40,000 nucleotides of DNA from Methanoculleus marisnigri JR1 (GTDB lineage: Archaea > Halobacteriota > Methanomicrobia > Methanomicrobiales > Methanoculleaceae). The DNA is taken from the NCBI RefSeq assembly GCF_000015825.1, contig NC_009051.1, forward strand, positions 698,695 through 738,694. Direction: 5' to 3'. The notes beneath the pieces are model-generated. The model saw only the letters and a program-made list of their open reading frames with translations. It was not told where the DNA came from and searched no databases. Shown in pieces: positions 7,460 through 38,654 of this stretch; the stretch's first letter is position 1, and every line of letters starts with the position of its first letter. Position numbers and translations under genes: made by a program.

Positions 7460-7900
7460 GACTTCCGGTGCGCGTCCGATTTGTTGCCGGGGGAGCCGTC
7501 CCCAAACGCCTCTGCCGGAGGGGGACACCAATCGCACCTCCGGTGCTCACGTTCGTTTTCGCCCACGCTTCGAAGACTTTTGGCCTTCTCAAGATCCCTC
7601 TGGTCCCATTCCCCGGTCTCTCGCCCGAAACGTTTCGAGTTTCGGCTCTGTTAAAATCATGTTTTGGTTTTGAAGGTCGTAATTGGGGGGGGTGTAGATG
7701 TCCGGGGTTCGAGCACCCTGATGCGAGGCGCGACTGGCCGAAGGGCAGGAGCAGGAGAAGACCGAAGGTCTTGGACTGGCGACTGGCCGAAGGTGCGACG
7801 TTCCTCCGGAACGGAGTTTGAGCACCGCAAGGTGCGGGGGCAGGAGCACGAGCACCACAGGTGCGCAGTCCCCTCGGAAGCCGTGTCTGGGACGCAATCG
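7460..7900. repeat. cluster of short GC-rich hairpin repeats (interspersed intergenic repeat family, copy R1; two modules in inverted orientation)
   Basis: 7532-7555 is the exact reverse complement of 13911-13934 (24/24). 7567-7593 matches 20752-20778 (23/27, same orientation). 7755-7774 matches 13877-13896 (19/20). Multiple 5-7 bp stems with 3-4 nt loops (GCACC-TCC-GGTGC 7534-7546, AAGACC-GAA-GGTCTT 7758-7772, CTCCG-GAA-CGGAG 7804-7816, GCACC-GCAA-GGTGC 7822-7835, GCACC-ACA-GGTGC 7852-7864). Confidence 0.8.
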
Positions 7901-13828: not shown

Positions 13829-14150
13829 GTGTTTGGTTTTGGGAGGTATTTTTGGGTTTGGTATTAACGACGCTCGGAGAAGACCGAAGGTCTTCGACGC
13901 GTGAGCGTAGCGAACGTGAGCACCGGAGGTGCGACGGCGACGGACAGGATTGGGGACTGCGCCGTGAGAGGGGGTGCATGTGGATTTTTAGGGCTCGTGC
14001 TCGTGGCTATCCTGTCCATAACGTTCTTGGACACGGATTCCCCTGGGATATCGCGCTTGGGGGTGGGGCTGACGGGGAGGGGGGAGTATCCCCCCTCCCC
14101 TGTCCCCTCCCCCCTATGGCGATTCCACCACGGTCCACTGTACTGGAATT
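13829..14150. repeat. interspersed intergenic repeat, copy R2 (hairpin modules plus G/C-tract palindrome)
   Basis: GAAGACC-GAA-GGTCTTC hairpin at 13879-13895. 24-nt exact inverted match to 7532-7555 at 13911-13934. Perfect 11-bp G/C hairpin at 14074-14100. The ends ttgggggtggggctgacggggag (14057-14079) and gtccactgta (14133-14142) recur at 20631-20652 and 20929-20938. Confidence 0.8.
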
Positions 14151-14255
14151 GCCGGGGAATACCCTGCCACGGCCCCGGAGATGTATGCGCCCCCACCTCC
14201 CCCCGCCACGCCCCGACAGCAACCTCTTCTATGCCGCAACCCTACCCTGTACATA

Positions 14256-15272
14256 ATGTCCAACCCGTTCCTCTCAGAAGACCCCGGGATAAGGCCCGAG
14301 CGCCCGATGCTGGCGCTTGTCCTCGGCAACACCATGCTCTCCACCGTCCCCGGCATATCCGGCGCAGGGCCGACCCCCGAAAAGACCCTGCTCACCCCGA
14401 ACCTGGATGCGGAGCTCGTCACGACCGGCGCGATCACGAGTGTCGCGGCCCGGCCGAACACCCCCACCGGCTGCCCGACGCCGGCGACCATCACCCGGTC
14501 GATGGTGGAACTGACCGGGCTTGCCCCCGTCATCGTCAACGCGGGGCTCGCCCATACTCCTACCGTCCCCTGCCTCGACGTCTACGGGAGCCCCGGCGGC
14601 GATCCGAGAACGGAGGATGCGGTGCCGCAGGCGGCAGCCCTCTTCGAGCGGGGCGAAGCGGTCGGGAGGCTTCTCTCGCAGTATAGCGATTTCTTGATGC
14701 TCGGGGAGTGCGTTCCCGGCGGGACGACCACCGCCCTCTGCGTTCTGCGGGCACTCGGCTACGACGCCTCGGTCAGCAGCGCGTTTGCCGAAAATCCCCT
14801 CGGCCTGAAAGATGCCGTCTGCAAGGCGGTGCTTGCCCGGATCGACGCGACGGGCGCAAGAGAGCCCCTCGAGATCCTCCGCGCCGCAGGCGACCCCATG
14901 ATGCCGGTCGCTGCAGGGATTGCGAGCACCTATACCGGCGAGATCCTCTTTGCCGGCGGAACCCAGATGCTTGCCGTTGCGGCCGTCCTGAAAGCGCTCG
15001 GGAAACGGGTGCCGGGCCTCGCGACGACGGTCTACGTCAGGGACGATCCATCCGCCGGGTTCGTCCGGTCGGTTGCCGATGTCGGCACCACCGCATACTT
15101 CGTCGACCCGAACTTCGCCGAGCTCGGGCACGTCGGGCTCGCCCGCTACTGCATCGGCGAAGTCAAGGAGGGGATGGGGGCCGGAGGGGCCCTGACACTC
15201 GCCTACCTCATGAACCACGAGCCCGAAGAGATCTCCCGGAAAGTCTTCGATTTCGTCAGGAAGTATGCCTGA
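14256..15272 (+). CDS. cobT: archaeal-type nicotinate-nucleotide--dimethylbenzimidazole phosphoribosyltransferase (UPF0284 / MJ1598-like CobT)
   Basis: ORF 14181-15272 trimmed to ATG 14256 (MSNPFLSEDPG...), because the upstream part lies in the repeat element. Motif-level resemblance (LGNTMLSTVPGISGAG...GECVPGGTTTA). Divergent from cobZ-cobS. Confidence 0.72.
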   Translation: MSNPFLSEDPGIRPERPMLALVLGNTMLSTVPGISGAGPTPEKTLLTPNLDAELVTTGAITSVAARPNTPTGCPTPATITRSMVELTGLAPVIVNAGLAHTPTVPCLDVYGSPGGDPRTEDAVPQAAALFERGEAVGRLLSQYSDFLMLGECVPGGTTTALCVLRALGYDASVSSAFAENPLGLKDAVCKAVLARIDATGAREPLEILRAAGDPMMPVAAGIASTYTGEILFAGGTQMLAVAAVLKALGKRVPGLATTVYVRDDPSAGFVRSVADVGTTAYFVDPNFAELGHVGLARYCIGEVKEGMGAGGALTLAYLMNHEPEEISRKVFDFVRKYA

Positions 15273-15310
15273 GGGAAGGACTATTACCTTTTTGCATCTA
15301 TCTATAAGCA

Positions 15311-15865
15311 ATGCTTCCACTCTATGTGGTCAATAATCACGGGCAGTTCAACCACCTGATCCTCCGGACGCTCCGTGACATGGATATCGAGGCCACGATG
15401 ATCTCGAATGAGACGCCGCCGGCCGAGGTCGCCCGGGGCTGCCGGGGCATCGTCCTCGGCGGCGGCCCGACCCTTGAACGTGCCGGCGTCGCCTCTGCGT
15501 ACCTTGACCTCGGTCTTCCCGTCCTCGGCATCTGCCTTGGGCTGCACATCATGGCGACGGCCCGCGGGGGTGCGATCCGCCGGGGTGCGAGCGGCGGGTT
15601 CGGTGCGGTCGAGGTTGAGATCTTCGAACAGAACCCTCTCCTCCGTGGCTACCCGGACCGGATGCAGGTATGGGCGTCGCACGCGGACGAGGTCTCGGTT
15701 GTGCCGGAAGGATTTGTCCGGCTTGCAGGATCATCCATCTGCGGCGTGGAGGCGATGGCATCTCCCGATGAACACCTCTACGGTATCCAGTGGCACCCGG
15801 AGGTCAGTCATACCGTCAACGGACGGCTTCTCTTTGAGAATTTTGACGGGATATGCTCGGAGTAG
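15311..15865 (+). CDS. guaA: GMP synthase, glutamine amidotransferase subunit A
   Basis: 184-aa class-I GATase. Nucleophile elbow GICLGLH and HPE (QWHPEVSH). Size typical of the split archaeal GuaA subunit A. Confidence 0.85.
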   Translation: MLPLYVVNNHGQFNHLILRTLRDMDIEATMISNETPPAEVARGCRGIVLGGGPTLERAGVASAYLDLGLPVLGICLGLHIMATARGGAIRRGASGGFGAVEVEIFEQNPLLRGYPDRMQVWASHADEVSVVPEGFVRLAGSSICGVEAMASPDEHLYGIQWHPEVSHTVNGRLLFENFDGICSE

Positions 15866-20499: not shown

Positions 20500-20950
20500 T
20501 CTGGGGTGGTTAGTGGATAGGATTTTTGGGCTTGGGACATTCAGTTTGCTGCCACTCGCGCTTGCGACACTCTATTCCTACCACTTGTGATCGCACAACT
20601 CTTGCACGGCTTTTCGGTGGGTATCGCCCTTTGGGGAGGGGCTGACGGGGAGTGCGATGGGCGGAACGCCCGGAGCTCGACCACCGTCAGGTGGGGAGGG
20701 GGGCACGCCCCCCTCCCCTGTCTCTTCGCATCAGACAGTGTTCAAATACGTGCTTCGAAGATCTTCGGCCATCTCAAGCCTCGAACACTATCCGTCGGCC
20801 CTTTCATGATAGGAGCGCTCCCCCTATGTGGGCGCCCGCAAATTTCTCATCAACCCCCCACCACCCGCGCTTCGCGCTCCTCCCGCCCCCCCGCAGGGGG
20901 GCGGGCAGTGCGTGGCGATGCTCCCATAGTCCACTGTATCGAATTCTTCT
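20500..20950. repeat. interspersed intergenic repeat, copy R3 (expanded version of the 14.06-14.15 kb element plus hairpin module)
   Basis: Shares both ends with R2 (20631-20652, 20929-20938). Perfect 11-bp G/C hairpin at 20693-20718. CTGACGG...CCGTCAG inverted pair within 20642-20689. CCCCCC-GCA-GGGGGG at 20887-20901. gcttcgaagatcttcggccatctcaag (20752-20778) matches 7567-7593. Confidence 0.8.
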
Positions 20951-25316: not shown

Positions 25317-25748
25317 TTACCTGGAGAGGGATGCCTTGAGGAGTTCACCGCCACGGTCAAGGATCTGCCGGACGGCGTCCTCGACCTGGTCCACGCGCAG
25401 GATCAGGATGGCGGCGTCCTTTCCCGAGTAGGCGTAGGCGTACTCGATGTTGATCCCGGCGTCCCCGAGAATCGACGCGATATCCGAGAGACCGCCGGGC
25501 TCGTCGCGCATCTTCACGCCGATGACGTCGGTGAACGAGACGCGGAACCCGAGATCGGTCAGCGTCCGGTGTGCGTCCTCCGGCCGATCGACGAGGGCGC
25601 GAACGACCCCGAACCCGTCCGCCTCGGCGATACTGAACGCAAGGATGTTGATCTTCGCATCCCGCAGCGCGCCGGCGACAGCCGCGAGGCGTCCCGGGCG
25701 ATTCTCCGAAAAGATGGAGATCTGTTTTACGATATACGACTTCTCCAT
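25317..25748 (-). CDS. tandem ACT-domain protein
   Basis: 143 aa. Two ACT repeats (ISIFSENRPGRLAAVAGAL..., VKMRDEPGGLSDIASIL...). Start overlaps the paaK stop (TAATG). Confidence 0.85.
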   Translation of the reverse strand: MEKSYIVKQISIFSENRPGRLAAVAGALRDAKINILAFSIAEADGFGVVRALVDRPEDAHRTLTDLGFRVSFTDVIGVKMRDEPGGLSDIASILGDAGINIEYAYAYSGKDAAILILRVDQVEDAVRQILDRGGELLKASLSR

Positions 25749-27049
25749 TACAATGACCTCCTGTCAACAACTTTCTTCGACTTGCCTTCGAACCGTGGAA
25801 GAGTTCCCGGTTCGACCAGTTCGACGTCCACGCTCACGTTCAGCGAGCTCCGCAGCCGGTGCTCCACGGCCTTCTTGATCACCATGAGTTCGGTGATCTT
25901 GTCGGAGAACGCCTCTTCGCTCACCTCAACCCGCACGAGCATGGAGTCGAGCGCACCCTTGCGGTCGACGACGATCTGGAAATGCCTGCCGACCTCGGGG
26001 ATCTCGAGCAGCGCATGCTCCACCTGCGACGGGAAGACATTGATGCCCCGGACGATCAGCATGTCGTCCACCCTCCCGCGGATCCGGCCGATGCGCGGAT
26101 GGGTCCGGCCGCAGGCGCAGGTTCCTTCCTCGATGGCGGTAAGGTCGCCGATCCGGTACCGGACCATGGGAAGCGCCTCTTTCTGCAGCATGGTGATCGT
26201 CAGTTCGCCCTGTTCGCCGGCCTCTAGCACCTCGCCGGTTGCAGGATCGACGATCTCCACGAGCGCGAGGTCGCCCCAGATGTGGATCCCCTGCTGCTCG
26301 GTGCACTCGGTGAACATCGGGCCTGAGAGTTCGCTCGTCCCGTATATGTCGTAGGCGCGGATCCCGAGCCAGTCCTCGATCCTGCCCCGCATCTGCTCCG
26401 ACCAGGGTTCGGCGCCGAGGAAGCCCATCCGAAGGTCGGTGTCGTTCTTGATCGAGACGCCCATCTTCTCCGCAACCTCTCCCATGTGGAGGAGGTAGGA
26501 GGGGGTGCAGGCGATGGCGGTGACATGGAGATCCTGCATGAGTTCGATCTGCCGCTCGGTATTCCCGACGCTTGTCGGAAGAACGGTCGCGCCGACCCGT
26601 TCGGCCCCGTAGTGAGCGCCGAGGCCGCCGGTGAAGAGGCCGTACCCGTAACTCACCTGCATAACGTCGCCCCGCCCAAGACCGCAGGAGGAGAACGCCC
26701 GCGCGAGCGACTCGCTCCAGTTCTCGATGTCGCGTTCCGTGTACCCGACGACCGTCGGTTTCCCCGTCGTCCCGGAGGAGACGTGGTACCTGACCAGTTC
26801 GTTCTGCTCGGCGGTGAAGATCCTGTCCGGGTAGCCGTCCCGCAGGTCGCTCTTGTACATGAACGGGAGTTTCGCGACATCCTCAAGCGTCCTGATGTCG
26901 TCGGGATGAACCTCGTGCTCCTTCATCCGGCGCCGGTAGAAGTCGTTGAAGCTGTAGAGCCGGTAAACCAGGGATTTTAAGAGTTTGAACTGGAGCCGCC
27001 GCAGTTCGTCGAGCGGCATCTCTTCCGTCCGCGGGTTCCACGAAGCCAT
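25748..27049 (-). CDS. paaK: phenylacetate--CoA ligase family protein (PaaK / F390 synthetase-like), paralogue 1
   Basis: 433 aa. Adenylate-forming motif SSGTTGKPT. Start overlaps the upstream stop (TGATG). Confidence 0.9.
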   Translation of the reverse strand: MASWNPRTEEMPLDELRRLQFKLLKSLVYRLYSFNDFYRRRMKEHEVHPDDIRTLEDVAKLPFMYKSDLRDGYPDRIFTAEQNELVRYHVSSGTTGKPTVVGYTERDIENWSESLARAFSSCGLGRGDVMQVSYGYGLFTGGLGAHYGAERVGATVLPTSVGNTERQIELMQDLHVTAIACTPSYLLHMGEVAEKMGVSIKNDTDLRMGFLGAEPWSEQMRGRIEDWLGIRAYDIYGTSELSGPMFTECTEQQGIHIWGDLALVEIVDPATGEVLEAGEQGELTITMLQKEALPMVRYRIGDLTAIEEGTCACGRTHPRIGRIRGRVDDMLIVRGINVFPSQVEHALLEIPEVGRHFQIVVDRKGALDSMLVRVEVSEEAFSDKITELMVIKKAVEHRLRSSLNVSVDVELVEPGTLPRFEGKSKKVVDRRSL

Positions 27050-28338
27050 CAGATCGCCCCCCGGCGGTCGATCACCCGCTTCGCCTTCCCCTCGAACCGG
27101 GGCAGCGCTCCCGGCTCCACCAGTTTCACCGCGGTCCGAAGGCCGAGCGTATTGTGGAGTTCGCCGGAGATTTTCTTCTGCATGCGGGCGAGGTCCTGCA
27201 GTTCGCCGGAGAACCCCGTCCTGCTCATCTCTACCTCGATGGTCATCTCATCAAGATGTTTGACGCGATCAATATATACGATGAACTGCTCCCCGACCTC
27301 AGGGAGGGCCCGTAGCACGTGCTCGATCTGGGACGGGAAGACGTTGATCCCCCGGATAACCAGCATATCGTCGCTCCGGCCCGTGATCCGCTCGATCTTC
27401 TGCCCGCGCCCGCAGGCGCACCCGTCATCCATCAGCCGGGTCACGTCGCCGGTGCGGTACCGGACGAGCGGCAGGGCGTCCTTGACGAGCGGCGTGATGA
27501 CAAGTTCGCCGCGCTCCCCGGGAGCGAGCCGCTCGCCGGTCTTGGGATCGATGATCTCGACAAGGTAGCAGTCGTGCCAGATATGAAGCCCGTCCCTCTC
27601 CGGGCACTCGAACGCCACGCCGGGACCGTACATCTCCGAGAGCCCGTAACTGTCGTAGGCCTTCACCCCGAGACGCCGTTCGAGTTCGTTGCGCATGCTC
27701 TCCGACCAGGGTTCGGCCCCGAAGATCCCGGTTTTCAGGGTATCCAGCGTCTTTCCCATCGACTCGGCCACCTCGGCGAGGTGGAGGGCATAACTCGGCG
27801 TGCAGTGGATGGCGGTCACCCCGAAATCCTCGATCATCTCGATCTGGCGGCGGGTGTTTCCGGTCGCGCTCGGGATCACGGTCATCCCGATCTTCTCGGC
27901 GCCGTAGTGGAACCCGAGCCCCCCGGTGAAGAGACCGTAGTTGACGGCGTTCTGGAAGACGTCGTCCTCCCCTAGACCGATCATCGTCATGTTCCGTGCG
28001 ATCAGTTCCGACCAGTTATCCAGGTCCTGCCGGGTGTAGCCGACGACGGTCGGCTTGCCCGTCGTGCCGGAGGTGGTGTGAATTCGGACGATCTCTTTTA
28101 AGGGAACCGCGAAGAGGCCGAACGGGTATCCGGCCTGGAGCTCCTTTTTGTAGGTAAAAGGGAGTTTCTCCACGTCGTCAAGCGTCTGAATATCGTCCGG
28201 CGAGACGCCCGCTTCTTTTAACTTTCTCTGGTATAACCCTACTTTCTGTGCCTGGGCTAGCGACCATTTCAGCCGCTTCAGTTGCAGATCCGCGAGTTCG
28301 CTAGATCGGATCGTCTCCATCTCTCTATTCCAGAACAT
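27049..28338 (-). CDS. paaK: phenylacetate--CoA ligase family protein (PaaK-like), paralogue 2
   Basis: 429 aa. TSGTTGKPT motif. Collinear with paralogue 1 (roughly half the residues identical by eye over the N-terminal 190 aa). Confidence 0.9.
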   Translation of the reverse strand: MFWNREMETIRSSELADLQLKRLKWSLAQAQKVGLYQRKLKEAGVSPDDIQTLDDVEKLPFTYKKELQAGYPFGLFAVPLKEIVRIHTTSGTTGKPTVVGYTRQDLDNWSELIARNMTMIGLGEDDVFQNAVNYGLFTGGLGFHYGAEKIGMTVIPSATGNTRRQIEMIEDFGVTAIHCTPSYALHLAEVAESMGKTLDTLKTGIFGAEPWSESMRNELERRLGVKAYDSYGLSEMYGPGVAFECPERDGLHIWHDCYLVEIIDPKTGERLAPGERGELVITPLVKDALPLVRYRTGDVTRLMDDGCACGRGQKIERITGRSDDMLVIRGINVFPSQIEHVLRALPEVGEQFIVYIDRVKHLDEMTIEVEMSRTGFSGELQDLARMQKKISGELHNTLGLRTAVKLVEPGALPRFEGKAKRVIDRRGAI

Positions 28339-28736
28339 AGTATCCCATCGGTTTTTCGCCGGTTGGAGAGATCGTGCTCCATCCGGCTATATTGCCCGGT
28401 ATCGGGTTGCGATACTCCTGACGGTCCTGTTCCGGCAGGCCGCCGGGCATACTTTACCGTTATATGGGCCCGCGGTGCGGAAAAGGTTTGTCAATGCGTG
28501 GCATGGTACGCCGTGACAGTCCCCGGTCCGGTTCCACTCTCCCGGGCAGTCAGGTTTTTTCTTCCCGAAACCTGTCCGGAGCAGGCCCCTCGGGCACCCG
28601 CGCCGGACGGCGGCGGCATAGGCGGCCGGCCGGTCGATCCAATCTCCTTACGCTGAGATTGCGTTCTCTCTGTATCCGGGAGATTCGATGCATTAATCAC
28701 CGAAAACAGCCCAATACTCATTTCCAGAGTGATCAG

Positions 28737-29672
28737 ATGGCAGCGACGGAACCCTGGCTCCCTGTCTTCGGCTACGGGGGGCACATCAAGGCGACGACAC
28801 GGGAGCTCATCATCGCGCGCGGGAGCGATACCCGGCGTTATCCCATACAGGCGGTGAAGCACCTCCTGATCGTCGGCGGGCATACCCTGCATACCTCGGC
28901 GGTGACGAATCTCCTCAAAGCCGGCGCTGCCATCACCATCTTCGACATCGACGGCACGCCCGTCGGATACCTCTACCCTTACGGTTATCGGCCGGACGAG
29001 TCGGTGCGCCTCGCCCAGGAGCGGGCCGGTCCCCACCGGTTCGCTCAGCCGCTCGCACGGGCCTCCCTCCAGTCGAGGCTTCTCCTCCTCGAGGAACTCT
29101 ACGACCACGCCGGGCACGATATCTTCTACGCCGGAGAGTTAGACTTCCTCCACCAGGCCAGGGAAGAACTTTCGGCCTCGGTCACGATGGAGAACCTGCG
29201 GCGGCTCTCCCGCCTGACCACCGATATGTACTACGAGATCCTCTCCCGCACGCTCCCGCCGGAACTCGGGTTCCGCCGCAGGACGAGCCGCCCTTACCTC
29301 GACCCCGTCAATGCGATGTTTGCGCTCGGATACGCGATGATTTACGGCAACTGCTGCGTCTCGGTGGTCGGGGCTCACCTCGATCCCGATCTCGGCATGC
29401 TTCACGAAGGGGCGGGGAGTTTCGTTCACGACCTCATCGAACCGCAGAAAGCCTCGATGGTGGATCGTGCCGTTATCCGGTTTGCCCGCGAAGAGATCTC
29501 AAGCGGAGATTACGAATGCGGAGAAAAGCGGTGTTATCTTGGCGGGGATCTCTCGTCCCGGCTGGCCGCGGCGCTCCGCGACTCCATTGATCAGGCCCGT
29601 ATCGACGCGCAGGTGCGCATCGTGCGGGATGCGCTCCTTGCGAACGCCGAGTTTCATGTGCTGTACTGGTAA
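28737..29672 (+). CDS. cas1: stand-alone Cas1 homologue (Cas1-solo; no CRISPR-cas context)
   Basis: ORF 28464-29672 trimmed to ATG 28737 (MAATEPWLPVFGYGGHIK...) with SD-like gagtgatc upstream. Cas1 N-terminal beta domain plus C-terminal block RPYLDPVNAMFALGYAMIY...GAHLDPDLGMLHEGAGSFVHDLIEPQKASMVD. Confidence 0.75.
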   Translation: MAATEPWLPVFGYGGHIKATTRELIIARGSDTRRYPIQAVKHLLIVGGHTLHTSAVTNLLKAGAAITIFDIDGTPVGYLYPYGYRPDESVRLAQERAGPHRFAQPLARASLQSRLLLLEELYDHAGHDIFYAGELDFLHQAREELSASVTMENLRRLSRLTTDMYYEILSRTLPPELGFRRRTSRPYLDPVNAMFALGYAMIYGNCCVSVVGAHLDPDLGMLHEGAGSFVHDLIEPQKASMVDRAVIRFAREEISSGDYECGEKRCYLGGDLSSRLAAALRDSIDQARIDAQVRIVRDALLANAEFHVLYW

Positions 29673-29941
29673 CTGCCCCGCTGAATGGTGAACTCGGGGT
29701 AAGCGGCATGGGGGACCTCCTGCTGGATGATATCCCTGATGATGACCCGGGGACACCCGTACAGCATGGAGACGAACTTATCGAGGACGACCGGGTCGGC
29801 GGTTGCGGTGATGAGCACCTGCCCGTCGGGGAGATTCATCGCCTCGCCGCCGACGCCGAGATTGGTGGCGATCCTCTTGATGCACGCGCGGAACCCGACG
29901 CCCTGTACTCTTCCCGAGACTTTGATCTCGACCGTCTTCAC
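29654..29941 (-). CDS. acyP: acylphosphatase-like protein
   Basis: ORF 29654-30094 trimmed to GTG 29941, which overlaps the TGA of the upstream gene (GTGA). 95 aa. Signature VSGRVQGVGFR and the Asn loop (AMNLPDG). Confidence 0.78.
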   Translation of the reverse strand: MKTVEIKVSGRVQGVGFRACIKRIATNLGVGGEAMNLPDGQVLITATADPVVLDKFVSMLYGCPRVIIRDIIQQEVPHAAYPEFTIQRGSYQYST

Positions 29942-32900
29942 AGCCAGTGCTCCTGGATGATCCGCATGGACATATCCAGCTCGTCGTATACCTCGTCCCG
30001 GATCATCGAGTCGCGGATGTTGAGCGCCTCGCTCACGGCCAGATCGAGGACCTCTCTCGAGCGGTCTTCGTAGCGCTCCGCATAGATCCGGCACGCCATA
30101 TCGCCGAGCACGAATGCCCGCCGTGAGAGCGGCCTGATGATCCGGGCCTCTTCGAGCGCGCAGAGCAGCATCCTGTCTGCAACCTCATGCTGCCCTGCGC
30201 CCCGGGCAATGAGGTAGAGTTCCGTGTAGTAGGCTGCCCGCTTCGCCCTGTCGGGCGCCGCACGTATCGCACGATCGAGCGTGACCATGTCCTTTGTGGT
30301 GTACTCGCCGTTCCGGATCTTGTCCCGGCAGTCGAGGATCCTGGCATAGACAGTATTCTTCCACGACTGGGGCATGTTCTGCTCGAGTTGGACCGTCAGG
30401 TTGTACCGGATCCGGTCGTCATCGATGGCGGAGACAATTTCGGCGGCACGTTCTCGGGCGGCAGGTTTCCCGCTCGCCCGGTAGAACGAGAAGAGCATCT
30501 GGGCCATCCGCTGCCGTGTCATGGCGGTGATGAACGGGATCTGAATGTAGCCGGCAGTCTGCTCCATGCCGTTTAACAGCTCCTCGATCTCCTCCTGGTC
30601 ACCGTACGTCTCGGCGAACTGCGCCACGTCGAAGAGCATCGAGAGCCGGACGTAGGGGGAGGGGATGTTCACGACGGTGTGGCACATCGAAGAGAGGATA
30701 TCCTTTCTCTGCGCGGGTTCGCTGACCATGTCGAAGACTGCCGCGAGAGCGTCGACGTATTCGACCGGATCCTCGATCCTGCCGACCTGCCCCATCGCCC
30801 ATTCGACGTCTTTCTCCTGCCGGTTGACGGCACTGAGGTTTCTTGCGGCGTAGATCAGGTTCTTCCTGACGAATGCCTCCCGCTCGCTCCCTATCGCGTC
30901 GAGCATTTGTTGCGCCTCGGCAAGATACTCCCTGGCTGCATCGTGATCGATCCCGGCCATGAGTCCGGCGAGGTCGGAGAGCATGATCGCGCGGACGGAC
31001 GGATCGGAGAGGTCGCCGATGGTCTCGTGGAGTCTCCGGATGATCGTCTCGGCCTGCTCGACGTTTTCGAGAGCCGAGTAGGCGCTCACGATCCGGTACA
31101 TCCCGGTGTAGCGTGCATAGACGTCGCCGGTGTGCTCGAAGAGCCGGTACATCAGTTCGAGCACAGGCTGTGCTGCCGCCCCTCCTTCGATCCCTTCGAG
31201 CAGGTAAGCCGTCACCTCATAGGGATCGGCCGAGTCGAATTCTTTCGTGTAATCGGTAAAGAACGTGAGGATCCGCTGGATCATGGCGGTTCGCTCGTAG
31301 TCGCCGTCGATCTCCAGGGAGAAGAGCGACATGGGTGCCGCAAAGATCGGGCTCGCGTAGATCTGTGTGTACTCGAGCATGATATCGACGTAACTTGCTA
31401 TCTTGATCGATACCTCCTCGTGCGGGGTGCTGGTCTTGAGGAGGTCGAGCGCTATTTCGAACGGCTCCATCATGCCGTCGAAGATCTGCGCCTTCCTCCG
31501 GGTGAGTTGGTCTGCCACCTGCAGGCTCCCGACCCGGACGTAGCCTTCGACGAGGGGATCGGCCAGTTGCCGCTGCAGGGACGGGTCGGCGATCTGGGAG
31601 AGGATCTGGCCCGCCTCGTCCAGCGCCTGGAGCGAGAGCTGCTCGATCCCGTACATGATCAGGCCGTGGACGACCTTGCCCATCGCAAAGAGGCAGTAGT
31701 CCCGTTCCAGCAGGGACGTGGAGAGAACCCGCATCCCGTGGAGCAGGTCGAGGTCGGCGTCCTCAACGGCGAGCACGGCAGCCTGGTCCACGATGCCCCC
31801 CATCGCCTCGGCCCGTGCCCGCTGGTCCACGATCTCGCAGGTGAGTCCGGTTGCGTGCCGGAGAAGATCCCGGTCTTTCCGGGCGACGCCGATCCTTGCC
31901 ATCTCGACTGCGATGGTCGAGATGGCCTGCTCGCGGAGATCCTGTTCTCCAATCTGGCCAACCAGATCCACGAGAGCCGAAGGCTCTTTCTGGCGAACGA
32001 ATCCTCGCTCGATCAGGATGGTGTTGCACTCGAAAAGCAGGGTGTCCTGTCCGCGGTGCGAGCTCGCGAGCTCCTTTATGGCTGGAATATGCCTGACGAC
32101 CTCGTCAAAGTCGTACTCCTTGCAGAAGTCGGTCACCGCCTGGTGAACCAGCGAATCGGCGATCTCGATATCCAGTGTGGCGAGGACGTTCTCGCGGACG
32201 AGCCCGATCTCGTCGCGCCGGACCCCCTCCTTGATCAGGCGGACACTGGTGTCGAAAAATTGGGCGTTGATCCTCTGTGCACTGCTGCTGGCCTTTTTCA
32301 TGACCTCGATTGCGTGATAGAAGTCGCCCATGCGGGAGAGTGCGTCGGTGATCTGCCGGTAGAGCTGGGCCGCTTTCGCAGCATCGCAGGACTCGTCGAT
32401 CAGCGGCGTGATGTCGAGGAGGATGGTCGGGTTGCCGCTCTTCTCGACGACCGCGATCCCGGAGAGGACGATCTCTTCGATGGGGAGCTGGGTTTCTCCG
32501 GCGCCCCGGGCGTTGAACTCGAACGCTTTCTCGAGGAACCAGCGCTCCCCACTCCGCTCGGCTTTCTTCAGGAGTTCGAGGACGAGGGTCTGGCCTGCCC
32601 ACGCTTTTTCGTCGTCGATCCTGAGCAGTTTGGTGTATACCTGTTTCTTGTCCCGCTGGCGGTCGAGGAGCTGCTCGGTCAGGATCGCGAGAACCTCCGT
32701 GAGCCGCTCTTCGGGGACGTCCGGGAGAGAGTCGATGATCCGTTCGATATCGGAAATCTCCTTCCTCTGCGAGGATTTCCAGGCCGCGTCCACGATATCG
32801 GCGATCGAGTTGGTGCGCCGGATCTTCTGGTTGATCTCGGTGGCGCTTGAAAGCCCGCGGATCACGAGGTTGATATCGCCGGACTCGATGCCCGCCCCGG

Positions 32901-33504
32901 CAATCGCCCGGGCCACGTCGGCGTGGAGTTGGGACTGCCGCGATATGTCGCCGATCTCGGGAAGCATCTGGAGCGCATACTGCATGATGTCGACGTTCTG
33001 GTGCTTCTGCCCGTACTGGATGAAGAGCGGGATGATCTCGGAGAGGATTGCAGAACGGTATTTGCGGATGCTGATCTTATCGAAGGCCTCTCCGCCTTTC
33101 TCGACGTAGTGGATGTCGCCGGAATCAACCCCGGACTGGACAAGGTCACGGGAGATCCTGGCGAGGATATCGGATTGATGGCTTTTGCGATCGAGTTTAT
33201 CGACCAGGGTGAATATCGCCGAGAACCATGCTTCATCCTTTTTCTCGCTATAGGTGACGGCGGCACGCTTGGCGAGGTCGAATATCTCTTCTTTGGTCGG
33301 TTCGACGAGCTGGCTCAAGAGTTCCGGCTGGCCTTCGTTGAACGCCGCTTCGACCAGGGCGGCATTCATCTGCTCGTAGAGCGATCTCTTCTCCTTCCTC
33401 GTCTGGGTCTCCGATATGTCCGAAACCACCTTTTCAAGCTCACGCAGATCGCCAGAAGAGATAGCGGAGTTGATCTTCTGTTTTATCTGTAGTTTTCCAT
33501 CCAT
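29938..33504 (-). CDS. very large (1188 aa) all-alpha repeat protein of unknown function
   Basis: Single uninterrupted ORF with normal amino-acid composition, whereas its 723-aa antisense ORF is R/G/D/H-rich shadow. Recurrent helical-repeat-like blocks (e.g. DILARISRDLVQSGVDSGDIHYV / ADVARAIAGAGIESGDINLV). No P-loop, Cys cluster, signal peptide or TM segment noticed. Confidence 0.8.
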   Translation of the reverse strand: MDGKLQIKQKINSAISSGDLRELEKVVSDISETQTRKEKRSLYEQMNAALVEAAFNEGQPELLSQLVEPTKEEIFDLAKRAAVTYSEKKDEAWFSAIFTLVDKLDRKSHQSDILARISRDLVQSGVDSGDIHYVEKGGEAFDKISIRKYRSAILSEIIPLFIQYGQKHQNVDIMQYALQMLPEIGDISRQSQLHADVARAIAGAGIESGDINLVIRGLSSATEINQKIRRTNSIADIVDAAWKSSQRKEISDIERIIDSLPDVPEERLTEVLAILTEQLLDRQRDKKQVYTKLLRIDDEKAWAGQTLVLELLKKAERSGERWFLEKAFEFNARGAGETQLPIEEIVLSGIAVVEKSGNPTILLDITPLIDESCDAAKAAQLYRQITDALSRMGDFYHAIEVMKKASSSAQRINAQFFDTSVRLIKEGVRRDEIGLVRENVLATLDIEIADSLVHQAVTDFCKEYDFDEVVRHIPAIKELASSHRGQDTLLFECNTILIERGFVRQKEPSALVDLVGQIGEQDLREQAISTIAVEMARIGVARKDRDLLRHATGLTCEIVDQRARAEAMGGIVDQAAVLAVEDADLDLLHGMRVLSTSLLERDYCLFAMGKVVHGLIMYGIEQLSLQALDEAGQILSQIADPSLQRQLADPLVEGYVRVGSLQVADQLTRRKAQIFDGMMEPFEIALDLLKTSTPHEEVSIKIASYVDIMLEYTQIYASPIFAAPMSLFSLEIDGDYERTAMIQRILTFFTDYTKEFDSADPYEVTAYLLEGIEGGAAAQPVLELMYRLFEHTGDVYARYTGMYRIVSAYSALENVEQAETIIRRLHETIGDLSDPSVRAIMLSDLAGLMAGIDHDAAREYLAEAQQMLDAIGSEREAFVRKNLIYAARNLSAVNRQEKDVEWAMGQVGRIEDPVEYVDALAAVFDMVSEPAQRKDILSSMCHTVVNIPSPYVRLSMLFDVAQFAETYGDQEEIEELLNGMEQTAGYIQIPFITAMTRQRMAQMLFSFYRASGKPAARERAAEIVSAIDDDRIRYNLTVQLEQNMPQSWKNTVYARILDCRDKIRNGEYTTKDMVTLDRAIRAAPDRAKRAAYYTELYLIARGAGQHEVADRMLLCALEEARIIRPLSRRAFVLGDMACRIYAERYEDRSREVLDLAVSEALNIRDSMIRDEVYDELDMSMRIIQEHWL

Positions 33505-33741: not shown

Positions 33742-33881
33742 GCACCTGGTGCTCGCGCTCTGGCTCTGCGACCCGTCGCGCTTCGAAAACGCTTCGCGTT
33801 TTCTCATGCTCCGGACGTCCCGTCCGTCGCGCTTCGAAACCCTTCGGGTTTTCTCACGCTCTGGCCCTTCGGCCCGTCGCG
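33742..33881. repeat. interspersed intergenic repeat, copy R4 (about 50-nt unit in tandem, hairpin modules)
   Basis: ccgtcgcg recurs at 33773, 33824 and 33874 (spacing 51 and 50 nt). Units contain GAAAACGC-TTC-GCGTTTTC (33785-33803) and AAACCC-TTC-GGGTTT (33836-33850). The last unit runs into the 3' end of glmM. Confidence 0.75.
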
Positions 33882-35224
33882 GCCATCATTATCTCCCGGT
33901 ACATGGCGTCCGCGACGGCCGGGTCCTTTGCCTCGATCATGATCCTGATCATCGGTTCCGTGCCCGATGCCCGCACCAGCGCCCAGGCGTTGTCCCTGAC
34001 GATCTTGATGCCGTCGATCTTCTCGACGGTCTCTCCCGTGAATGCCTCTTCGACGGCGCGGACCAGCGCCGCCGGGTCGGCGGTACGGTATTTCTCCTTG
34101 ACCAGGTGATACGCGGGGAGTTCGTCGACGATATCCGAGAGTTTTCTGTCCTGATGGCTCGCGAGCACCGCCACCATCATGGCGGCGGTCATGCCCCCGT
34201 CCCGGCAGAACTGGTGGTCGGGGTATATCAGCCCGCCGTTTCCTTCGCCCCCGAACGAGACTTTCCTGCCCTCGCCGATCAGCTCGATCATCCTCCTCGC
34301 GACGTAGATGCTCCCGACGGGTGTGTAGTCGACGGTGCAGTTGTGTTTCTCCGCGATATCCCGGATCAGCCGGGAGGTGGCGACCGGGGTGACGACGAGT
34401 CCGCCGCCGTTTCTACCGCAGACATAGTCCTCGACCAGACCGAACTCGTAGTTCTCTTCTATATAGCGTCCTTTGGTATCGACGAAGACCGCCCGGTCTG
34501 CGTCGCCGTCGTGCGCCACCCCGAAGTCGGCGCCCGTAGCGAGTACCATCTCCGAGAGGGGCTGCAATCCTTCGGGGGTCGGTTCGGGCATCCGGCCCGG
34601 GAAGGTGCCGTCGAGCCGGGCGTTGATGGTATGGACCCGGCACCCCATTCTCGAGAGGATGATCGGGGTCGTGAGCGCCGCGGGCCCGGAACCGGGGTCG
34701 ACGACGACGGTCATCCCCTTGCCGATGCCTTCCGGGAAGTGGTTCACGACGGCCTCGATGTACTCCTCCAGCCGGTCGGGTGCGGCGCTCTCGCTGCCGA
34801 CGCCGTCCCAGTCGACCACATCGAACTCCTCCGCAAAGAACCGGCCTTCGAGCCGGATGATCTCCTCATCGGACATCTCGGTGCCGTCGGCCTCGACGAT
34901 CTTCACGCCGTTGTACTCGGGCGGGTTGTGGGATGCGGTGATCATCGCGCCGCCGGCAAACCGGTTGGTCTTTATGATGTACTGCAGGGCCGGGGTGGGA
35001 AGGACGCCCACGTCCACCACGTCGCACCCGGTCATCAGGAGCCCGGCCTTGAGGGCATGGGTCAGGGCTTCGCCGGACGTTCGCGTGTCTCTGCCGACCG
35101 CAATGGTGCCCCTCCTCATCGATCCGAGCGCGGCGCCGATCTTGAGGACGAGGGTCGGCGTCATCGTCTCTCCGATCACGCCCCGCACGCCGTTCGTTCC
35201 AAACATCTGTTTTCCGTTTCGCAT
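33854..35224 (-). CDS. glmM: phosphoglucosamine mutase / phosphohexomutase
   Basis: 456 aa. Active-site loop TASHNPPEYNGVK, metal loop AHDGDADR, N-terminal FGTNGVRG. Alternative start at ATG 35206. Confidence 0.85.
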   Translation of the reverse strand: MRNGKQMFGTNGVRGVIGETMTPTLVLKIGAALGSMRRGTIAVGRDTRTSGEALTHALKAGLLMTGCDVVDVGVLPTPALQYIIKTNRFAGGAMITASHNPPEYNGVKIVEADGTEMSDEEIIRLEGRFFAEEFDVVDWDGVGSESAAPDRLEEYIEAVVNHFPEGIGKGMTVVVDPGSGPAALTTPIILSRMGCRVHTINARLDGTFPGRMPEPTPEGLQPLSEMVLATGADFGVAHDGDADRAVFVDTKGRYIEENYEFGLVEDYVCGRNGGGLVVTPVATSRLIRDIAEKHNCTVDYTPVGSIYVARRMIELIGEGRKVSFGGEGNGGLIYPDHQFCRDGGMTAAMMVAVLASHQDRKLSDIVDELPAYHLVKEKYRTADPAALVRAVEEAFTGETVEKIDGIKIVRDNAWALVRASGTEPMIRIMIEAKDPAVADAMYREIMMAATGRRARA

Positions 35225-35984: not shown

Positions 35985-36553
35985 ATCTCCTCCTTTTCTT
36001 CTTGACTCTGTACTTCCGGCTCCTGTACTTCCTGGCTCTCGCCTTCCTGGCCTGGCCGGGTCTTCAGGATGACCGAAGCCGCCTCGGCCACGCCACGCAT
36101 CACCTCGGTGATCCGGTCCTCGACGTCGATCTCGTCGTCGAGGTTCAGGCTCGTTCCTTCCACCTCCAGCAGGAACCGGGCGACTTCGCTTGCCTCGAAG
36201 AGGATCTCGTCGAGTTCCTCTGCGGTGAAAAAGCCGCACATGGCCCCGTAAAAGAACGTGGCACCTGCTTTCTTCACCTTCTTCTTGAACGAGCTCCTTG
36301 CCTGGTTGACCGCCTGCGGGGAGTAGGAGTCGACCATGAACGGGCAGAGTTCGGGGAGGTTCTCCCCGATGAACGTCATCTCCGAGCCGCTGGTGGTCTT
36401 GAAGTCTGCGCAGAGGCGTGCGATCGCCCACTCGCGGGCGGTGATGTGGGTGTGTTTGCGCAGGAACTGGTTGACCCGCTGGTAGGTGGCGCCATCCACC
36501 TTCTTGAATTTCTGGTACTTGTTCGGGTCTTTGATGCTGTCAGGTTCTTCCAT
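35981..36553 (-). CDS. hypothetical protein with acidic C-terminal tail
   Basis: 190-aa ORF of normal composition. GAGGT Shine-Dalgarno about 8 nt upstream and an AT-rich upstream region. Possible helix-turn-helix-like segment (HITAREWAIARLCADF). Tail EGESQEVQEPEVQSQEEKEEI. Confidence 0.6.
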   Translation of the reverse strand: MEEPDSIKDPNKYQKFKKVDGATYQRVNQFLRKHTHITAREWAIARLCADFKTTSGSEMTFIGENLPELCPFMVDSYSPQAVNQARSSFKKKVKKAGATFFYGAMCGFFTAEELDEILFEASEVARFLLEVEGTSLNLDDEIDVEDRITEVMRGVAEAASVILKTRPGQEGESQEVQEPEVQSQEEKEEI

Positions 36554-37712
36554 TTTATCTACCTCTTGTTGGTTTTGCTATTTCAATAATAAGGCTGGTT
36601 GAACGGTGGTTCAAAAGAAACCGGATGCGCCGCCGGGATCGGTCTTGTCGTGCGGGTGCTGCCGGTGTCACGATCGCCCTCTGTCATGATATAGCATCAT
36701 AAGGTTTATGTCTGTCTCTTTGCTCTCGGGTTCGGGGCGGTGATCCGGTCATCGGAGTGGGCTGTTCTCCCGTTTGCGGCACAATAATCGGCTCGAGTGC
36801 TCGATAACGGTTGACGGGTGAGATCGTATCGGGCTTCGGAGGTGGTCTTGATCGTGGTGGGGGGCCCCGTGGCGTCCGGAGGGCGGTATGTGGAAACTCA
36901 TTTGGGCTTCGGACTGCTTTGAACCCACAAACCCTGCGTTTTCAGGGCTCAGCGGTGCCCGAACGGTCCCGGGGCATATGGGCTTTGAGGGTGCGGCACC
37001 CGGGTAAATGCCCGGCAGTACGGATCTTCATCAAATTGGTTTTGTCCTGCCCGATCTCCCGGAGCGCGCCGTTGCCCCGATTTTTGGGTGGTCATCCGGA
37101 TCCGGTGCCCTCATATCGCGATTCTGAGCCGGGATCGTAATCCTTCCCATGCAAGAGGTTGTCTGAGGGGCCGATCGGGTGTCTGTGCTCGCATGTGGAG
37201 TTCATTTATATATGGGCGCCCGGCGGGGGTCGCGTGGCACCGGTGTTGTTCCCGGATCGTTCACTTTCTCCCCGCGCGGTATGGGGTTCATATACCTGAA
37301 AAGGAACGTATTCAGTAGGGTTTGCTTCCCCGCCCCCACCTGGGGCGCAGCCCCTCATACCTCCGAACTCCGAAGCAATCTGCATCACCTTCCGTCCATT
37401 TTTTAAGTATCCGGGTCTGCCCGGCCTTTCTGCAACTTTCTGGCGCGTTTTAGGTGTGTTCCGGGAACTGTGGGTCGCCTCCCGCGGCGGCATGGTCCGG
37501 GGGGTAATTGCTCTCGTTTCTCGGCTATTCGCCTGCCCCTCCCGGGGTATCGGGAGATCGGCGGGTTCCTGCGGCCGGGACGTGTCTCTTTCCTTAACGG
37601 CTCTCCCGGTGCGAGTGCCGTGCGGTCGGCTGGTGGGTCTCCCATGCGCCGGGCCCGCGTTCTCTGGCGGCAGAATGCGTTGCGGGGAATAGGCATTTAC
37701 CGCAATCTTGAT

Positions 37713-38654
37713 ATGCTCGGTTATTTAATTTATTGTACAATGGATAACGCCTGTTTCTCGGAATGGCTGGATCGCTTCAGCAGTTACCTCCGGATGCGGA
37801 ACTACTCGCCCCGGACCATCGAAAAATACCTGCAGACCATCCGGCGTTTCGCCCGATACGCCTGGTTACGACAGAACTCGGACGGGGTCTCGTTCGATGG
37901 GGCTGCGTTCGAGAACGCTCCGCTGGATGCCGACGTCAACGTCTCTTCGGCTCTCGTCACCGATTTCTTCTCTTACTTATCGGAACAGCAGGACTACAAG
38001 CCCAAGACCCTCCACCGGATGATCTCGACGCTCTCTTCGTTTTACAAGTATCTCTACGTGCAGGGCGCCGTGGTCGCCGACCCGATGCTCGGGGTGGAGC
38101 GGCCCCGGATCAAGAATCAGGAACTGAAATATCTCAAACACAGCCAGGTTCTCCGCCTGATCAACACCATTGAGAGTGAGCGCGACCGGCTGATCGTCCG
38201 CCTTATTTACGCCACCGGTGTCCGTGTTTCGGAGCTTTGCGCGATATGCGTCGAGGACATCGATTTCGAGGAACAGACGATACGGGTGAAGGGTAAAGGC
38301 GATAAGATACGGACGGTTTTCATCGACGAGGAGACTCTCGAAGAGATTAACCGGTTCATCGGCAACACAATCGAGGGGCCGCTCTTTTCAGGTCAGCAGG
38401 GCAACCACCTCTCCCCGCGAACCGTCCAGCATCTCTTCAAGCAATACGCTCCTTCCGGGATTACACCGCATAAAATCCGGCATTCCTATGCGAGTGAACT
38501 CTATCGCCGCTCGAAGAATCTCCGCGTCGTGCAGGAGAACCTGGGGCACTCCTCCATCAAGACGACCGAGATCTACCTGCACACCGACATCGACGAGCGC
38601 AAACGCGTCTATCAGCAGTATTTCCCGCTCTCGAACGGAAAAAAAGAGGAATGA
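37713..38654 (+). CDS. tyrosine recombinase / integrase (XerA/XerC-like)
   Basis: ORF 37470-38654 trimmed to ATG 37713 (alternative ATG 37740, MDNACFSEWL...). N-terminal SAM-like core-binding domain. Catalytic residues R (ATGVRVSEL), HxxR (HKIRHSYAS) and H...Y (GHSSIKTTEIYLH). Confidence 0.88.
   Translation: MLGYLIYCTMDNACFSEWLDRFSSYLRMRNYSPRTIEKYLQTIRRFARYAWLRQNSDGVSFDGAAFENAPLDADVNVSSALVTDFFSYLSEQQDYKPKTLHRMISTLSSFYKYLYVQGAVVADPMLGVERPRIKNQELKYLKHSQVLRLINTIESERDRLIVRLIYATGVRVSELCAICVEDIDFEEQTIRVKGKGDKIRTVFIDEETLEEINRFIGNTIEGPLFSGQQGNHLSPRTVQHLFKQYAPSGITPHKIRHSYASELYRRSKNLRVVQENLGHSSIKTTEIYLHTDIDERKRVYQQYFPLSNGKKEE

Follow-up and report, generated by a model that had tools for sequence, protein, structure and literature searches.

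The 40,000-nucleotide stretch of Methanoculleus marisnigri JR1 analysed here (contig NC_009051.1, positions 698,695 to 738,694; hereafter the window) carries a gene, cas1-solo, whose 311-residue product is a genuine full-length two-domain relative of Cas1. [quoted passage not shown] We propose, with a probability of about 0.6, that the protein in the window is a pseudo-enzyme, a domesticated and non-catalytic Cas1 with a housekeeping role independent of CRISPR. Within this proposal the identity of the protein is nearly certain, and the odds on the mechanism by which it would act are about even. If the proposal holds, a third Cas1 lineage has lost catalysis and retained its fold over hundreds of millions of years, and a Cas1 in a genome without CRISPR would show how a fold can be domesticated for another role.

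The family assignment rests on profile matches and on a predicted structure. First, the Pfam profile Cas_Cas1 (PF01867) matches the product with E=2.8e-46 and 158.4 bits (cut-off 22.3) over profile positions 3-281 of 283, and TIGR00287 gives 127.2 bits at a cut-off of 71.7; with the subtype-specific Cas1 models the protein stays below the cut-off in every case. Secondly, an AlphaFold2 (AF2) model made with 26 family members as input (predicted local distance difference test, pLDDT, 90.4; predicted template modeling score, pTM, 0.89) displays the two-domain layout, with an N-terminal beta domain (strands ~8-79) and a C-terminal helical domain (helices ~88-302). The best Foldseek matches to this model are all Cas1 or casposase structures (4n06, 6opm, 7kft, 7mi4 and 7cr6 among them) with template modeling (TM) scores of ~0.8, and the top 50 matches listed span E-values of 3e-18 to 4e-11 with TM ≤0.83. 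When 1.84 billion representative proteins were searched with a family profile, full-length family members scored 488-205 bits and the next full-length matches, canonical Cas1 proteins, reached at most 141 bits, a score gap that sets the solo proteins apart from canonical Cas1 as a discrete family. An earlier note, made from the letters of this DNA, had described the open reading frame (ORF) at 28737-29672 (+) as a 311-aa, stand-alone two-domain Cas1 homologue with a Cas1 signature block and had proposed Cas1 profiles as a check; translation, alignments, both profiles, the AF2 model and Foldseek all agree with it.

The protein itself is not new. Its residues 5-277 are 100% identical to all 273 residues of the JR1 sequence (gi 126178701) in the supplementary alignment of Krupovic et al. 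(2014, BMC Biol 12:36; PMC4046053), and by this exact match it is identified as a founding member of Cas1-solo group 1, a clade first reported by Makarova et al. (2013). Krupovic and co-workers found group 1 to be confined to Methanomicrobiales, with no horizontal transfer and with an incomplete active site, and judged its members unlikely to be active endonucleases, activity being the less likely option (PMC4046053). A 2023 review gives the same description and assigns no function, and our literature searches returned no expression or functional data for the solo group. Thus the gene, the clade, its restriction to Methanomicrobiales, the lack of CRISPR linkage and the predicted inactivity were all published in 2013-14. 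The earlier note was right that Cas1-solo proteins outside casposons have no established function; its ranking of this gene as the strongest candidate in the window for an undescribed activity does not stand, since the exact protein is already in the founding alignment. What our analysis adds to the published group is a set of 229 species genomes, the variability of the catalytic His, a dN/dS (ratio of nonsynonymous to synonymous substitution rates) of ~0.16, an isoelectric point (pI) of ~6, the acylphosphatase and 1188-aa neighbours, and a promoter-like motif. The shifts of charge and of constraint described below are likewise new observations that go beyond the published group description.

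Catalytic positions were placed by HMMER alignments to 4n06, 7cr6 and 7mi4, and were followed through a family alignment of 201 sequences (the window protein with 80 from genomic loci and 120 from databases) and a comparison set of the 34 nearest CRISPR-type Cas1 proteins, which come from other organisms. The His of GMLH and the acidic pair of HDLIE, which the earlier note had read as retained, do align with catalytic residues of solved Cas1 structures, as H223, D232 and E235. The upstream catalytic Glu, which it had been unable to place, falls at Ser158, where it has been replaced. The window protein hence lacks the complete set equivalent to E. coli E141, H208, D218 and D221: Ser158 stands for the Glu, and the other three are present. 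Across the family the Glu column holds S in 83 sequences, H in 62, F in 45, Y and A in 5 each and Q in 1, with Glu or Asp in 0/201; a further representative from the profile search, P0125, which lies outside the 201-sequence set, has Asp there. The His column keeps H in 171/201 and has N, R, S, Q or Y in the other 30 (~15%), and the most divergent members (Methanofollis, Methanospirillum and Methanocorpusculum-type) have T, F, S, P or Y. D232 is D in all 201 and E in Methanocorpusculum P0139, and the E235 column is E or D in 192/201 and G in the remaining 9. The E-H-D-E set is complete in 34/34 of the nearest canonical Cas1 proteins, four of which have scores intermediate between the two groups. 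Judged by these alignments, the metal-binding Glu is lost in all 201 aligned members and constraint on the catalytic His is relaxed. The integrase-like enzyme that the earlier note had in mind is for the same reasons unlikely.

The loss is accompanied by features that are specific to the family. In the helix 151-170 a signature, RRLxxLxxDMYYE, stands where canonical Cas1 has rGiEGxaaxxYf, so that the glycines on either side of the Glu are gone. Its R156 is invariant in the solo family at a position that is Gly in 97% of canonical Cas1, and E167 (invariant) and D163 (near-invariant) lie on this same helix of the lost Glu. Comparison of solo and canonical columns yields R156, R181, R265, M164, Y166, M241 and W7 as family-specific invariants, together with H42 and H49 in most members; R156, R181 and R265 are arginines where canonical Cas1 mostly has Gly. 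In addition, 4 residues that canonical Cas1 has after the His are deleted in the solo family.

The gene shows the marks of long maintenance. In a scan with one genome per GTDB species, relatives were found in 229 species genomes, of which the best 80, together with 120-150 proteins, were inspected by name. Those best 80 all belong to Methanomicrobiales or to unclassified Methanobacteriota metagenome-assembled genomes whose copies are 89-91% identical to those of Methanoculleus; the closest among the matches listed is from Methanoculleus sp. MH98A (97%), and the profile search adds members from Methanofollis, Methanospirillum and Methanocorpusculum. The reading frame is uninterrupted, at ~300-350 aa, in 79/79 fully captured copies among the 80 species loci, the 80th running off the end of its contig. 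The median dN/dS against 14 Methanoculleus orthologues is 0.157, and the neighbouring housekeeping genes give 0.07-0.18. Pairwise protein distances of cas1-solo correlate with those of phosphoglucomutase (r=0.97) and acylphosphatase (r=0.92), and both the GC content and the GC content at third codon positions (GC3) are native. Intact copies, dN/dS, co-divergence with the neighbours and native GC and GC3 together support vertical inheritance across Methanomicrobiales and show that the gene is maintained under purifying selection much as its housekeeping neighbours are.

It could be argued that cas1-solo is what is left, in a state of decay, of a casposon or of a CRISPR-Cas locus since lost, as its active site is degenerate and a casposase is among its closest fold matches. 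We give this explanation practically no weight, since selection and synteny already refute it: the 79 uninterrupted copies and a dN/dS of 0.16 do not fit decay, and neither do the synteny and co-divergence with neighbours across an archaeal order, the native GC and GC3, the promoter-like motif conserved upstream, or the absence of polB, terminal inverted repeats (TIRs) and other repeats in the flanks. The earlier note had named decay as one outcome that would go against it; the degenerate active sites do agree with that outcome, but conserved context, intact ORFs and dN/dS do not, and the gene is not a relic.

Charge and constraint have both shifted. The 201 solo proteins have a median pI of 6.2 and a median net charge of -4, whereas the 34 nearest canonical Cas1 proteins have 9.4 and +9.5; elsewhere in the window the pI is 8.8 for the XerA-like recombinase, a DNA-binding protein, and 5-6 for cytosolic enzymes. 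The ratio of sequence identity within the solo family to that within canonical Cas1 is 1.32 overall, 1.03 in the His loop and 0.85 in the D/E helix, and it rises to 1.58 in the N-terminal domain, 1.71 in the linker helices and 1.48 in helix 151-172. The helix that carries the RRLxxLxxDMYYE signature is the most conserved region of the solo family. Relative to canonical Cas1, conservation has thus shifted from the His loop and the D/E helix to the N-domain, the linker helices and helix 151-172.

According to our hypothesis an ancient, vertically inherited Cas1 paralogue of Methanomicrobiales would have kept the fold and dropped DNA cutting and integration. With the strongly basic character of an integrase lost (pI ~6 versus ~9.4), the protein would no longer wrap and cut DNA. 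Invariant arginines would have been gained, namely R156 two residues from the lost Glu, R181 beside the universal Arg that precedes the DPVN motif, and R265. From the loss of basic charge and these gained arginines we infer that a specific phosphate-bearing ligand, or else a protein partner, is most likely bound in or close to the old active site, where catalysis no longer takes place. A nucleic-acid end and a short branched segment are candidates for this ligand, and the protein would act as a CRISPR-independent adaptor or sensor, for instance in genome maintenance or information processing.

Some caution is called for in reading this hypothesis, since several points weigh against it. The inactivity is deduced from residue loss, and with D232 and E235 largely conserved, E167 invariant and D163 near-invariant an unconventional active site may exist. 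That R156, R181 and R265 lie near the former active site is deduced from their position in the sequence and from known Cas1 architecture, not from distances. The canonical set comes from other organisms, and proteome background may account for part of the difference in pI; moreover, a near-neutral pI speaks against extensive wrapping of DNA and says nothing positive about a bound ligand. Lastly, the gene context forms no functional operon and consists, by family, of PaaK-like ligases, of an RNA polymerase/NusA operon, or of an archaemetzincin and a YchF-like GTPase.

The first of these points leads to the view that the protein is still a nuclease or integrase, one that uses non-canonical residues (D232/E235 with D163/E167 or with residue 158) on a new substrate. 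D232 is indeed invariant, E235 is E or D in 96% of the family and E167 never varies; the His found at the Glu column in 62/201 could in principle bind metal, and Krupovic et al. (PMC4046053) allowed for activity as the less likely option. We consider such an enzyme quite improbable nonetheless. The residues at the Glu column (Ser, Phe, Tyr, Ala, Gln, His) offer no consistent metal ligand, the catalytic His is T, F, S, P, Y, N, R or Q in whole sub-lineages, and D232 becomes E in Methanocorpusculum. D163 and E167 lie 5 and 9 residues along the helix and, by helix geometry, would be off the face of position 158. The ex-catalytic elements are also relatively less conserved than in canonical Cas1, and the single substitution E141A is enough to abolish the activity of E. 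coli Cas1 (cited in Krupovic 2014, PMC4046053).

Independence from CRISPR is seen at the level of the window, of related loci and of the genome. Scans for tandem, direct and inverted repeats found no repeat-spacer array in the 40 kb, where tRNA and Rfam searches likewise gave no match. Pfam found no cas2, cas4 or polB in the large ORFs checked or among the genes called on a contig with an identical Cas1, the small intergenic ORFs not having been scanned individually for cas2. What Pfam does find there are housekeeping families, among them CetZ, EF-1alpha, CobS, an ammonium transporter, P-II, two PaaK-like ligases, acylphosphatase, phosphoglucomutase, MoaE/MobB and a Xer-like recombinase. The earlier note's reading of the surroundings as free of CRISPR, cas2, cas4 and polB therefore agrees with the repeat, Rfam and Pfam scans. 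In ~85 loci examined, no cas genes, arrays, polB or transposon ends lie beside the solo gene within ±8-10 kb. The linkage to cas2 (with or without cas4) and to an array that marks a CRISPR adaptation module is thus absent from the window, from the ~85 related loci and from the JR1 counts given below.

A role in trans in CRISPR adaptation, whether by supplying the integrase for a locus that lacks cas1 or by acting as a non-catalytic Cas1 protomer or regulator, deserves consideration at this point. Of the four Cas1 protomers in a Cas1-Cas2 complex only two are catalytic, so a dead Cas1 could be structural. Published genome statistics list 21 cas genes and 6 arrays for M. hungatei and 8 and 1 for M. 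labreanum, and both of these species with CRISPR-Cas carry the solo gene. The same statistics give 1 CRISPR-associated gene and 0 arrays for M. marisnigri JR1, with whose published solo sequence the window protein agrees at all of residues 5-277. From these counts, service to a CRISPR locus in trans, a possibility that the earlier note had raised, is excluded for the JR1 genome. Elsewhere, the separate type I-U locus of the relative M. bourgensis encodes a Cas4/1 fusion and a Cas2 of its own, the solo gene is never beside cas genes or arrays in the ~85 loci, and the catalytic Glu is missing. Taken together, a trans-acting CRISPR factor is very improbable.

A casposon is not indicated either. 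The repeat scan of the window found no inverted or direct repeat pair bracketing cas1-solo of the kind that casposon TIRs would form, no PolB domain occurs among the window genes in which the family-B DNA polymerase of the same element would be sought, and of the four strictly conserved catalytic residues of casposases the Glu is absent.

The neighbourhood of cas1-solo is conserved on one side. From Methanoculleus to Methanoregula, with Cas1 identity falling to ~45%, the order is RraA/OMPdc, ACT, PaaK, PaaK, Cas1-solo (+), acylphosphatase (-), the 1188-aa gene (-) and phosphoglucomutase (-). In Methanospirillum cas1-solo follows the RNA polymerase/L30e/NusA operon and is still convergent with acylphosphatase and a 1189-aa gene, Methanofollis keeps the trio of cas1-solo, acylphosphatase and ~1188-aa gene, and in Methanocorpusculum, where this trio does not occur, cas1-solo is flanked by an archaemetzincin and a YchF-like GTPase. 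In every locus that has sequence on the downstream side, acylphosphatase stands at +0.9 to +1.0 kb, tail-to-tail with cas1-solo, and the 1188-aa gene adjoins in most loci. In the window cas1-solo and acylphosphatase share 19 nt at their 3' ends (29654-29672), and Methanoculleus, Methanoregula, Methanospirillum and Methanofollis all retain such a tail-to-tail overlap, of 4-59 nt. This overlap may lock the two genes together or permit antisense interference.

The 1188-aa protein has no family match in Pfam, NCBIfam or PADLOC, and a sequence search of the PDB gives no more than generic TPR/HEAT similarity. Its 93 homologues, for which every organism name given is of Methanomicrobiales, are ~1185-1230 aa long when complete, and mostly 1185-1189. 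The AF2 model (pLDDT 89.5) is an all-alpha solenoid of ~65 helices, the pI is strongly acidic (4.9), and Foldseek returns generic TPR/HEAT scaffolds alone (Ski3, IFT-A, Ctr9, CAND1) with TM <0.25. The modeled protein is apparently an order-specific scaffold, translationally coupled to the downstream acylphosphatase.

These neighbours suggest that Cas1-solo might be a protein-binding module that does not act on DNA and works with the adjoining 1188-aa TPR-like scaffold and with acylphosphatase. In a more novel reading, the Cas1 fold would have been exapted as a non-catalytic, CRISPR-independent cellular factor that acts with this scaffold, and possibly with acylphosphatase, as an order-specific module in genome maintenance or information processing. 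Methanomicrobiaceae, Methanoregulaceae and Methanospirillaceae all retain the order Cas1-solo/acylphosphatase/1188-aa although the genes on the other flank differ, Cas1-solo and the 1188-aa protein are both found in Methanomicrobiales only (among the names inspected), TPR/HEAT solenoids are protein-binding scaffolds, and the pI of Cas1-solo is near neutral. However, the genes are convergent and not co-transcribed, and the overlapping 3' ends alone could keep them adjacent, since a break at any point there would disrupt a gene. The 1188-aa gene is moreover not adjacent in several Methanoregulaceae/Methanolinea loci (L041, L047, L052, L054, L066, L068 and L079), and neither it nor acylphosphatase flanks the Methanocorpusculum copy. 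We regard this partnership as unlikely; were it true, it would provide the first Cas1 pseudo-enzyme with a defined cellular partner.

Other suggestions from the gene context were set aside. Acylphosphatase shares the ferredoxin-like fold with Cas2 and was considered as a disguised Cas2; this was rejected, as acylphosphatase profiles match, PADLOC gives no Cas2 match, and the catalytic motifs of an acylphosphatase, a VxGxVQGVGFR loop and a downstream Asn, can be read by eye. The upstream flank of cas1-solo is variable, with inserts that include a histidine kinase, an arginine-deiminase-like gene, PEGA surface proteins and a phosphatase. That this region is an integration hot spot of the Cas1-like protein was rejected because the inserted genes are ordinary.

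The start of the gene was chosen among two candidates. The longest ORF, of 402 aa, begins at 28464 and adds 91 codons (28464-28736). It was rejected as the true start, because the extension is poorly conserved among homologues and contains indels, and because the equivalent of MAATEPW forms the N-terminus in all homologues. The start at 28737 is further favored by the Shine-Dalgarno-like GTGATC just upstream, which we take to be complementary to the 3' end of the 16S rRNA. The supplement of Krupovic et al. (2014) numbers its JR1 alignment from residue 89, which suggests that the deposited JR1 protein uses this longer and probably wrong start. Further upstream, the motif TCGATGCATTAATCA occurs at the same distance from the ATG in 34 Methanomicrobiaceae loci regardless of which gene lies upstream; it resembles a TATA box (ATTAAT, 28692-28697), from which a transcription start ~25 nt further downstream is predicted, and suggests that cas1-solo is monocistronic with its own promoter.

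Coordinates, within the window, of cas1-solo, its putative signals, its active-site codons and its convergent neighbours
Feature	Position	Strand	Basis and remarks
cas1-solo coding sequence (Cas1-solo group 1)	28737..29672	+	311 aa plus stop; ORF translation, profile matches, AF2 model, published alignment
Promoter-like motif TCGATGCATTAATCA	28685..28699	+	38-52 nt 5' of ATG; upstream-region alignment
GTGATC, Shine-Dalgarno-like	28729..28734	+	2 nt between motif end and ATG at 28737; read from the sequence; kept in Methanoculleus loci
Family signature RRLxxLxxDMYYE, helix 151-170	29199..29237	+	replaces rGiEGxaaxxYf of canonical Cas1
Ser158 codon, catalytic Glu position (E. coli E141)	29208..29210	+	S of SRLTT; HMMER alignments
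His223 codon (GMLH), catalytic His position (E. coli H208)	29403..29405	+	kept in window protein, variable across family
Asp232-Glu235 codons (HDLIE), E. coli D218 and D221 positions	29430..29441	+	HMMER alignments
Acylphosphatase, 95 aa	29654..29941	-	convergent with cas1-solo; PF00708, NCBIfam acylphosphatase models; context, no functional link shown
1188-aa all-alpha TPR/HEAT-like protein	29938..33504	-	directly 5' of acylphosphatase, 4-nt start/stop overlap; context, possible partner (speculative)

On the upstream side, two tandem PaaK-like paralogues (of the phenylacetate-CoA ligase/F390-synthetase type; 25748-28338, -) with ~64% DNA identity are followed by an ACT-domain gene, and this trio is kept across the order. 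The intergenic region between PaaK and cas1-solo contains, at 28470-28520, a strongly conserved non-coding block CGGAAAAGGTTTGTCAATGCGTGGCATGG..GTGACA with a TGTCA..N20..TGACA inverted repeat. In locus L018, where the region is split, the block stays with PaaK, and it is for this reason assigned to the PaaK-ACT operon, of which it is probably a regulator site or promoter element. A conserved distal motif, GAAAAGGTTTGTCA (28481-28494), was dropped as part of the cas1 feature since it travels with the PaaK side; the intergenic region has no Rfam match.

Other parts of the window are of some interest in their own right. Between DUF5806 and the Xer-like recombinase, ~1.2 kb (36553-37740) contain no called gene; near 37205 lies TTTATATA, which is strongly TATA-like, and Methanoculleus loci have the block at ~37170-37390 in common as a conserved stretch. 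This stretch has no Rfam match even at E<=1 and could be an undescribed non-coding RNA or regulatory region. A 59-nt inverted repeat pair (7532-7590 and 13877-13934; 86% identity, with the perfect 24-nt core TCGCACCTCCGGTGCTCACGTTCG) occupies two intergenic regions 6.3 kb apart, and 7729-7763, in the intergenic region at 7.7 kb, is 83% complementary to the unit at 33847-33881 of a tandem repeat (33752-33889; ~50-nt unit, ~2.6 copies, 75% match) that lies between the 1188-aa gene and phosphoglucomutase. These matches point to a small family of dispersed intergenic repeats. G-rich palindromes (GGGGAGGGGGG...CCCCCCTCCCC) within a 34-48-nt direct repeat are found in two intergenic regions (14032-14123 and 20605-20722) and are possible terminator-like or regulatory hairpins. 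No Pfam family matches the acidic 360-aa ORF (6295-7377, +; pI 4.6) that comes directly after the CetZ tubulin gene, or either of the long ORFs on the two strands of a ~1.1-kb stretch at 14181-15320.

The role of a conserved dead Cas1 is a question that was stated in 2013-14 and that is unanswered as far as the searched literature shows; the present data sharpen it. Its solution would inform the history of Cas1, that is, whether the solo form or CRISPR came first, and could reveal an order-specific housekeeping process in important methanogens.

Comparison with known systems places the protein as follows. With the published group 1 there is no difference: the restriction to one order, the lack of any sign of horizontal transfer, the absence of a CRISPR link and the incomplete catalytic set are the same. 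With canonical CRISPR Cas1 it shares the two-domain fold (TM ~0.8) and the motifs R182, DPVN (189-192), GY (198-199), D232 and D243; the nearest CRISPR subtype models are those for I-D, I-G (Cas4/Cas1), I-B and I-C, and the nearest solved structures are those of A. fulgidus (4n06) and Synechocystis (7cr6). Like the casposases (Cas1-solo group 2; M. mazei 6opm, TM 0.82-0.83), it is a stand-alone Cas1 of methanogenic archaea outside CRISPR loci. Casposases carry a C-terminal helix-turn-helix. They also have all four catalytic residues, polB, TIRs and target-site duplications, and are mobile and patchily distributed (Krupovic 2014, PMC4046053), whereas the window protein has none of the casposase features and ends, at 311 aa, with the Cas1 domain. 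A precedent for Cas1 outside immunity comes from E. coli, where Babu et al. are said to have reported in 2011 that Cas1 (YgbT) takes part in DNA repair and acts on branched DNA. YgbT differs from the solo protein in its catalytic activity, its basic character and its place within a CRISPR-Cas locus; by analogy with it, a repair role for the solo protein could be hypothesized.

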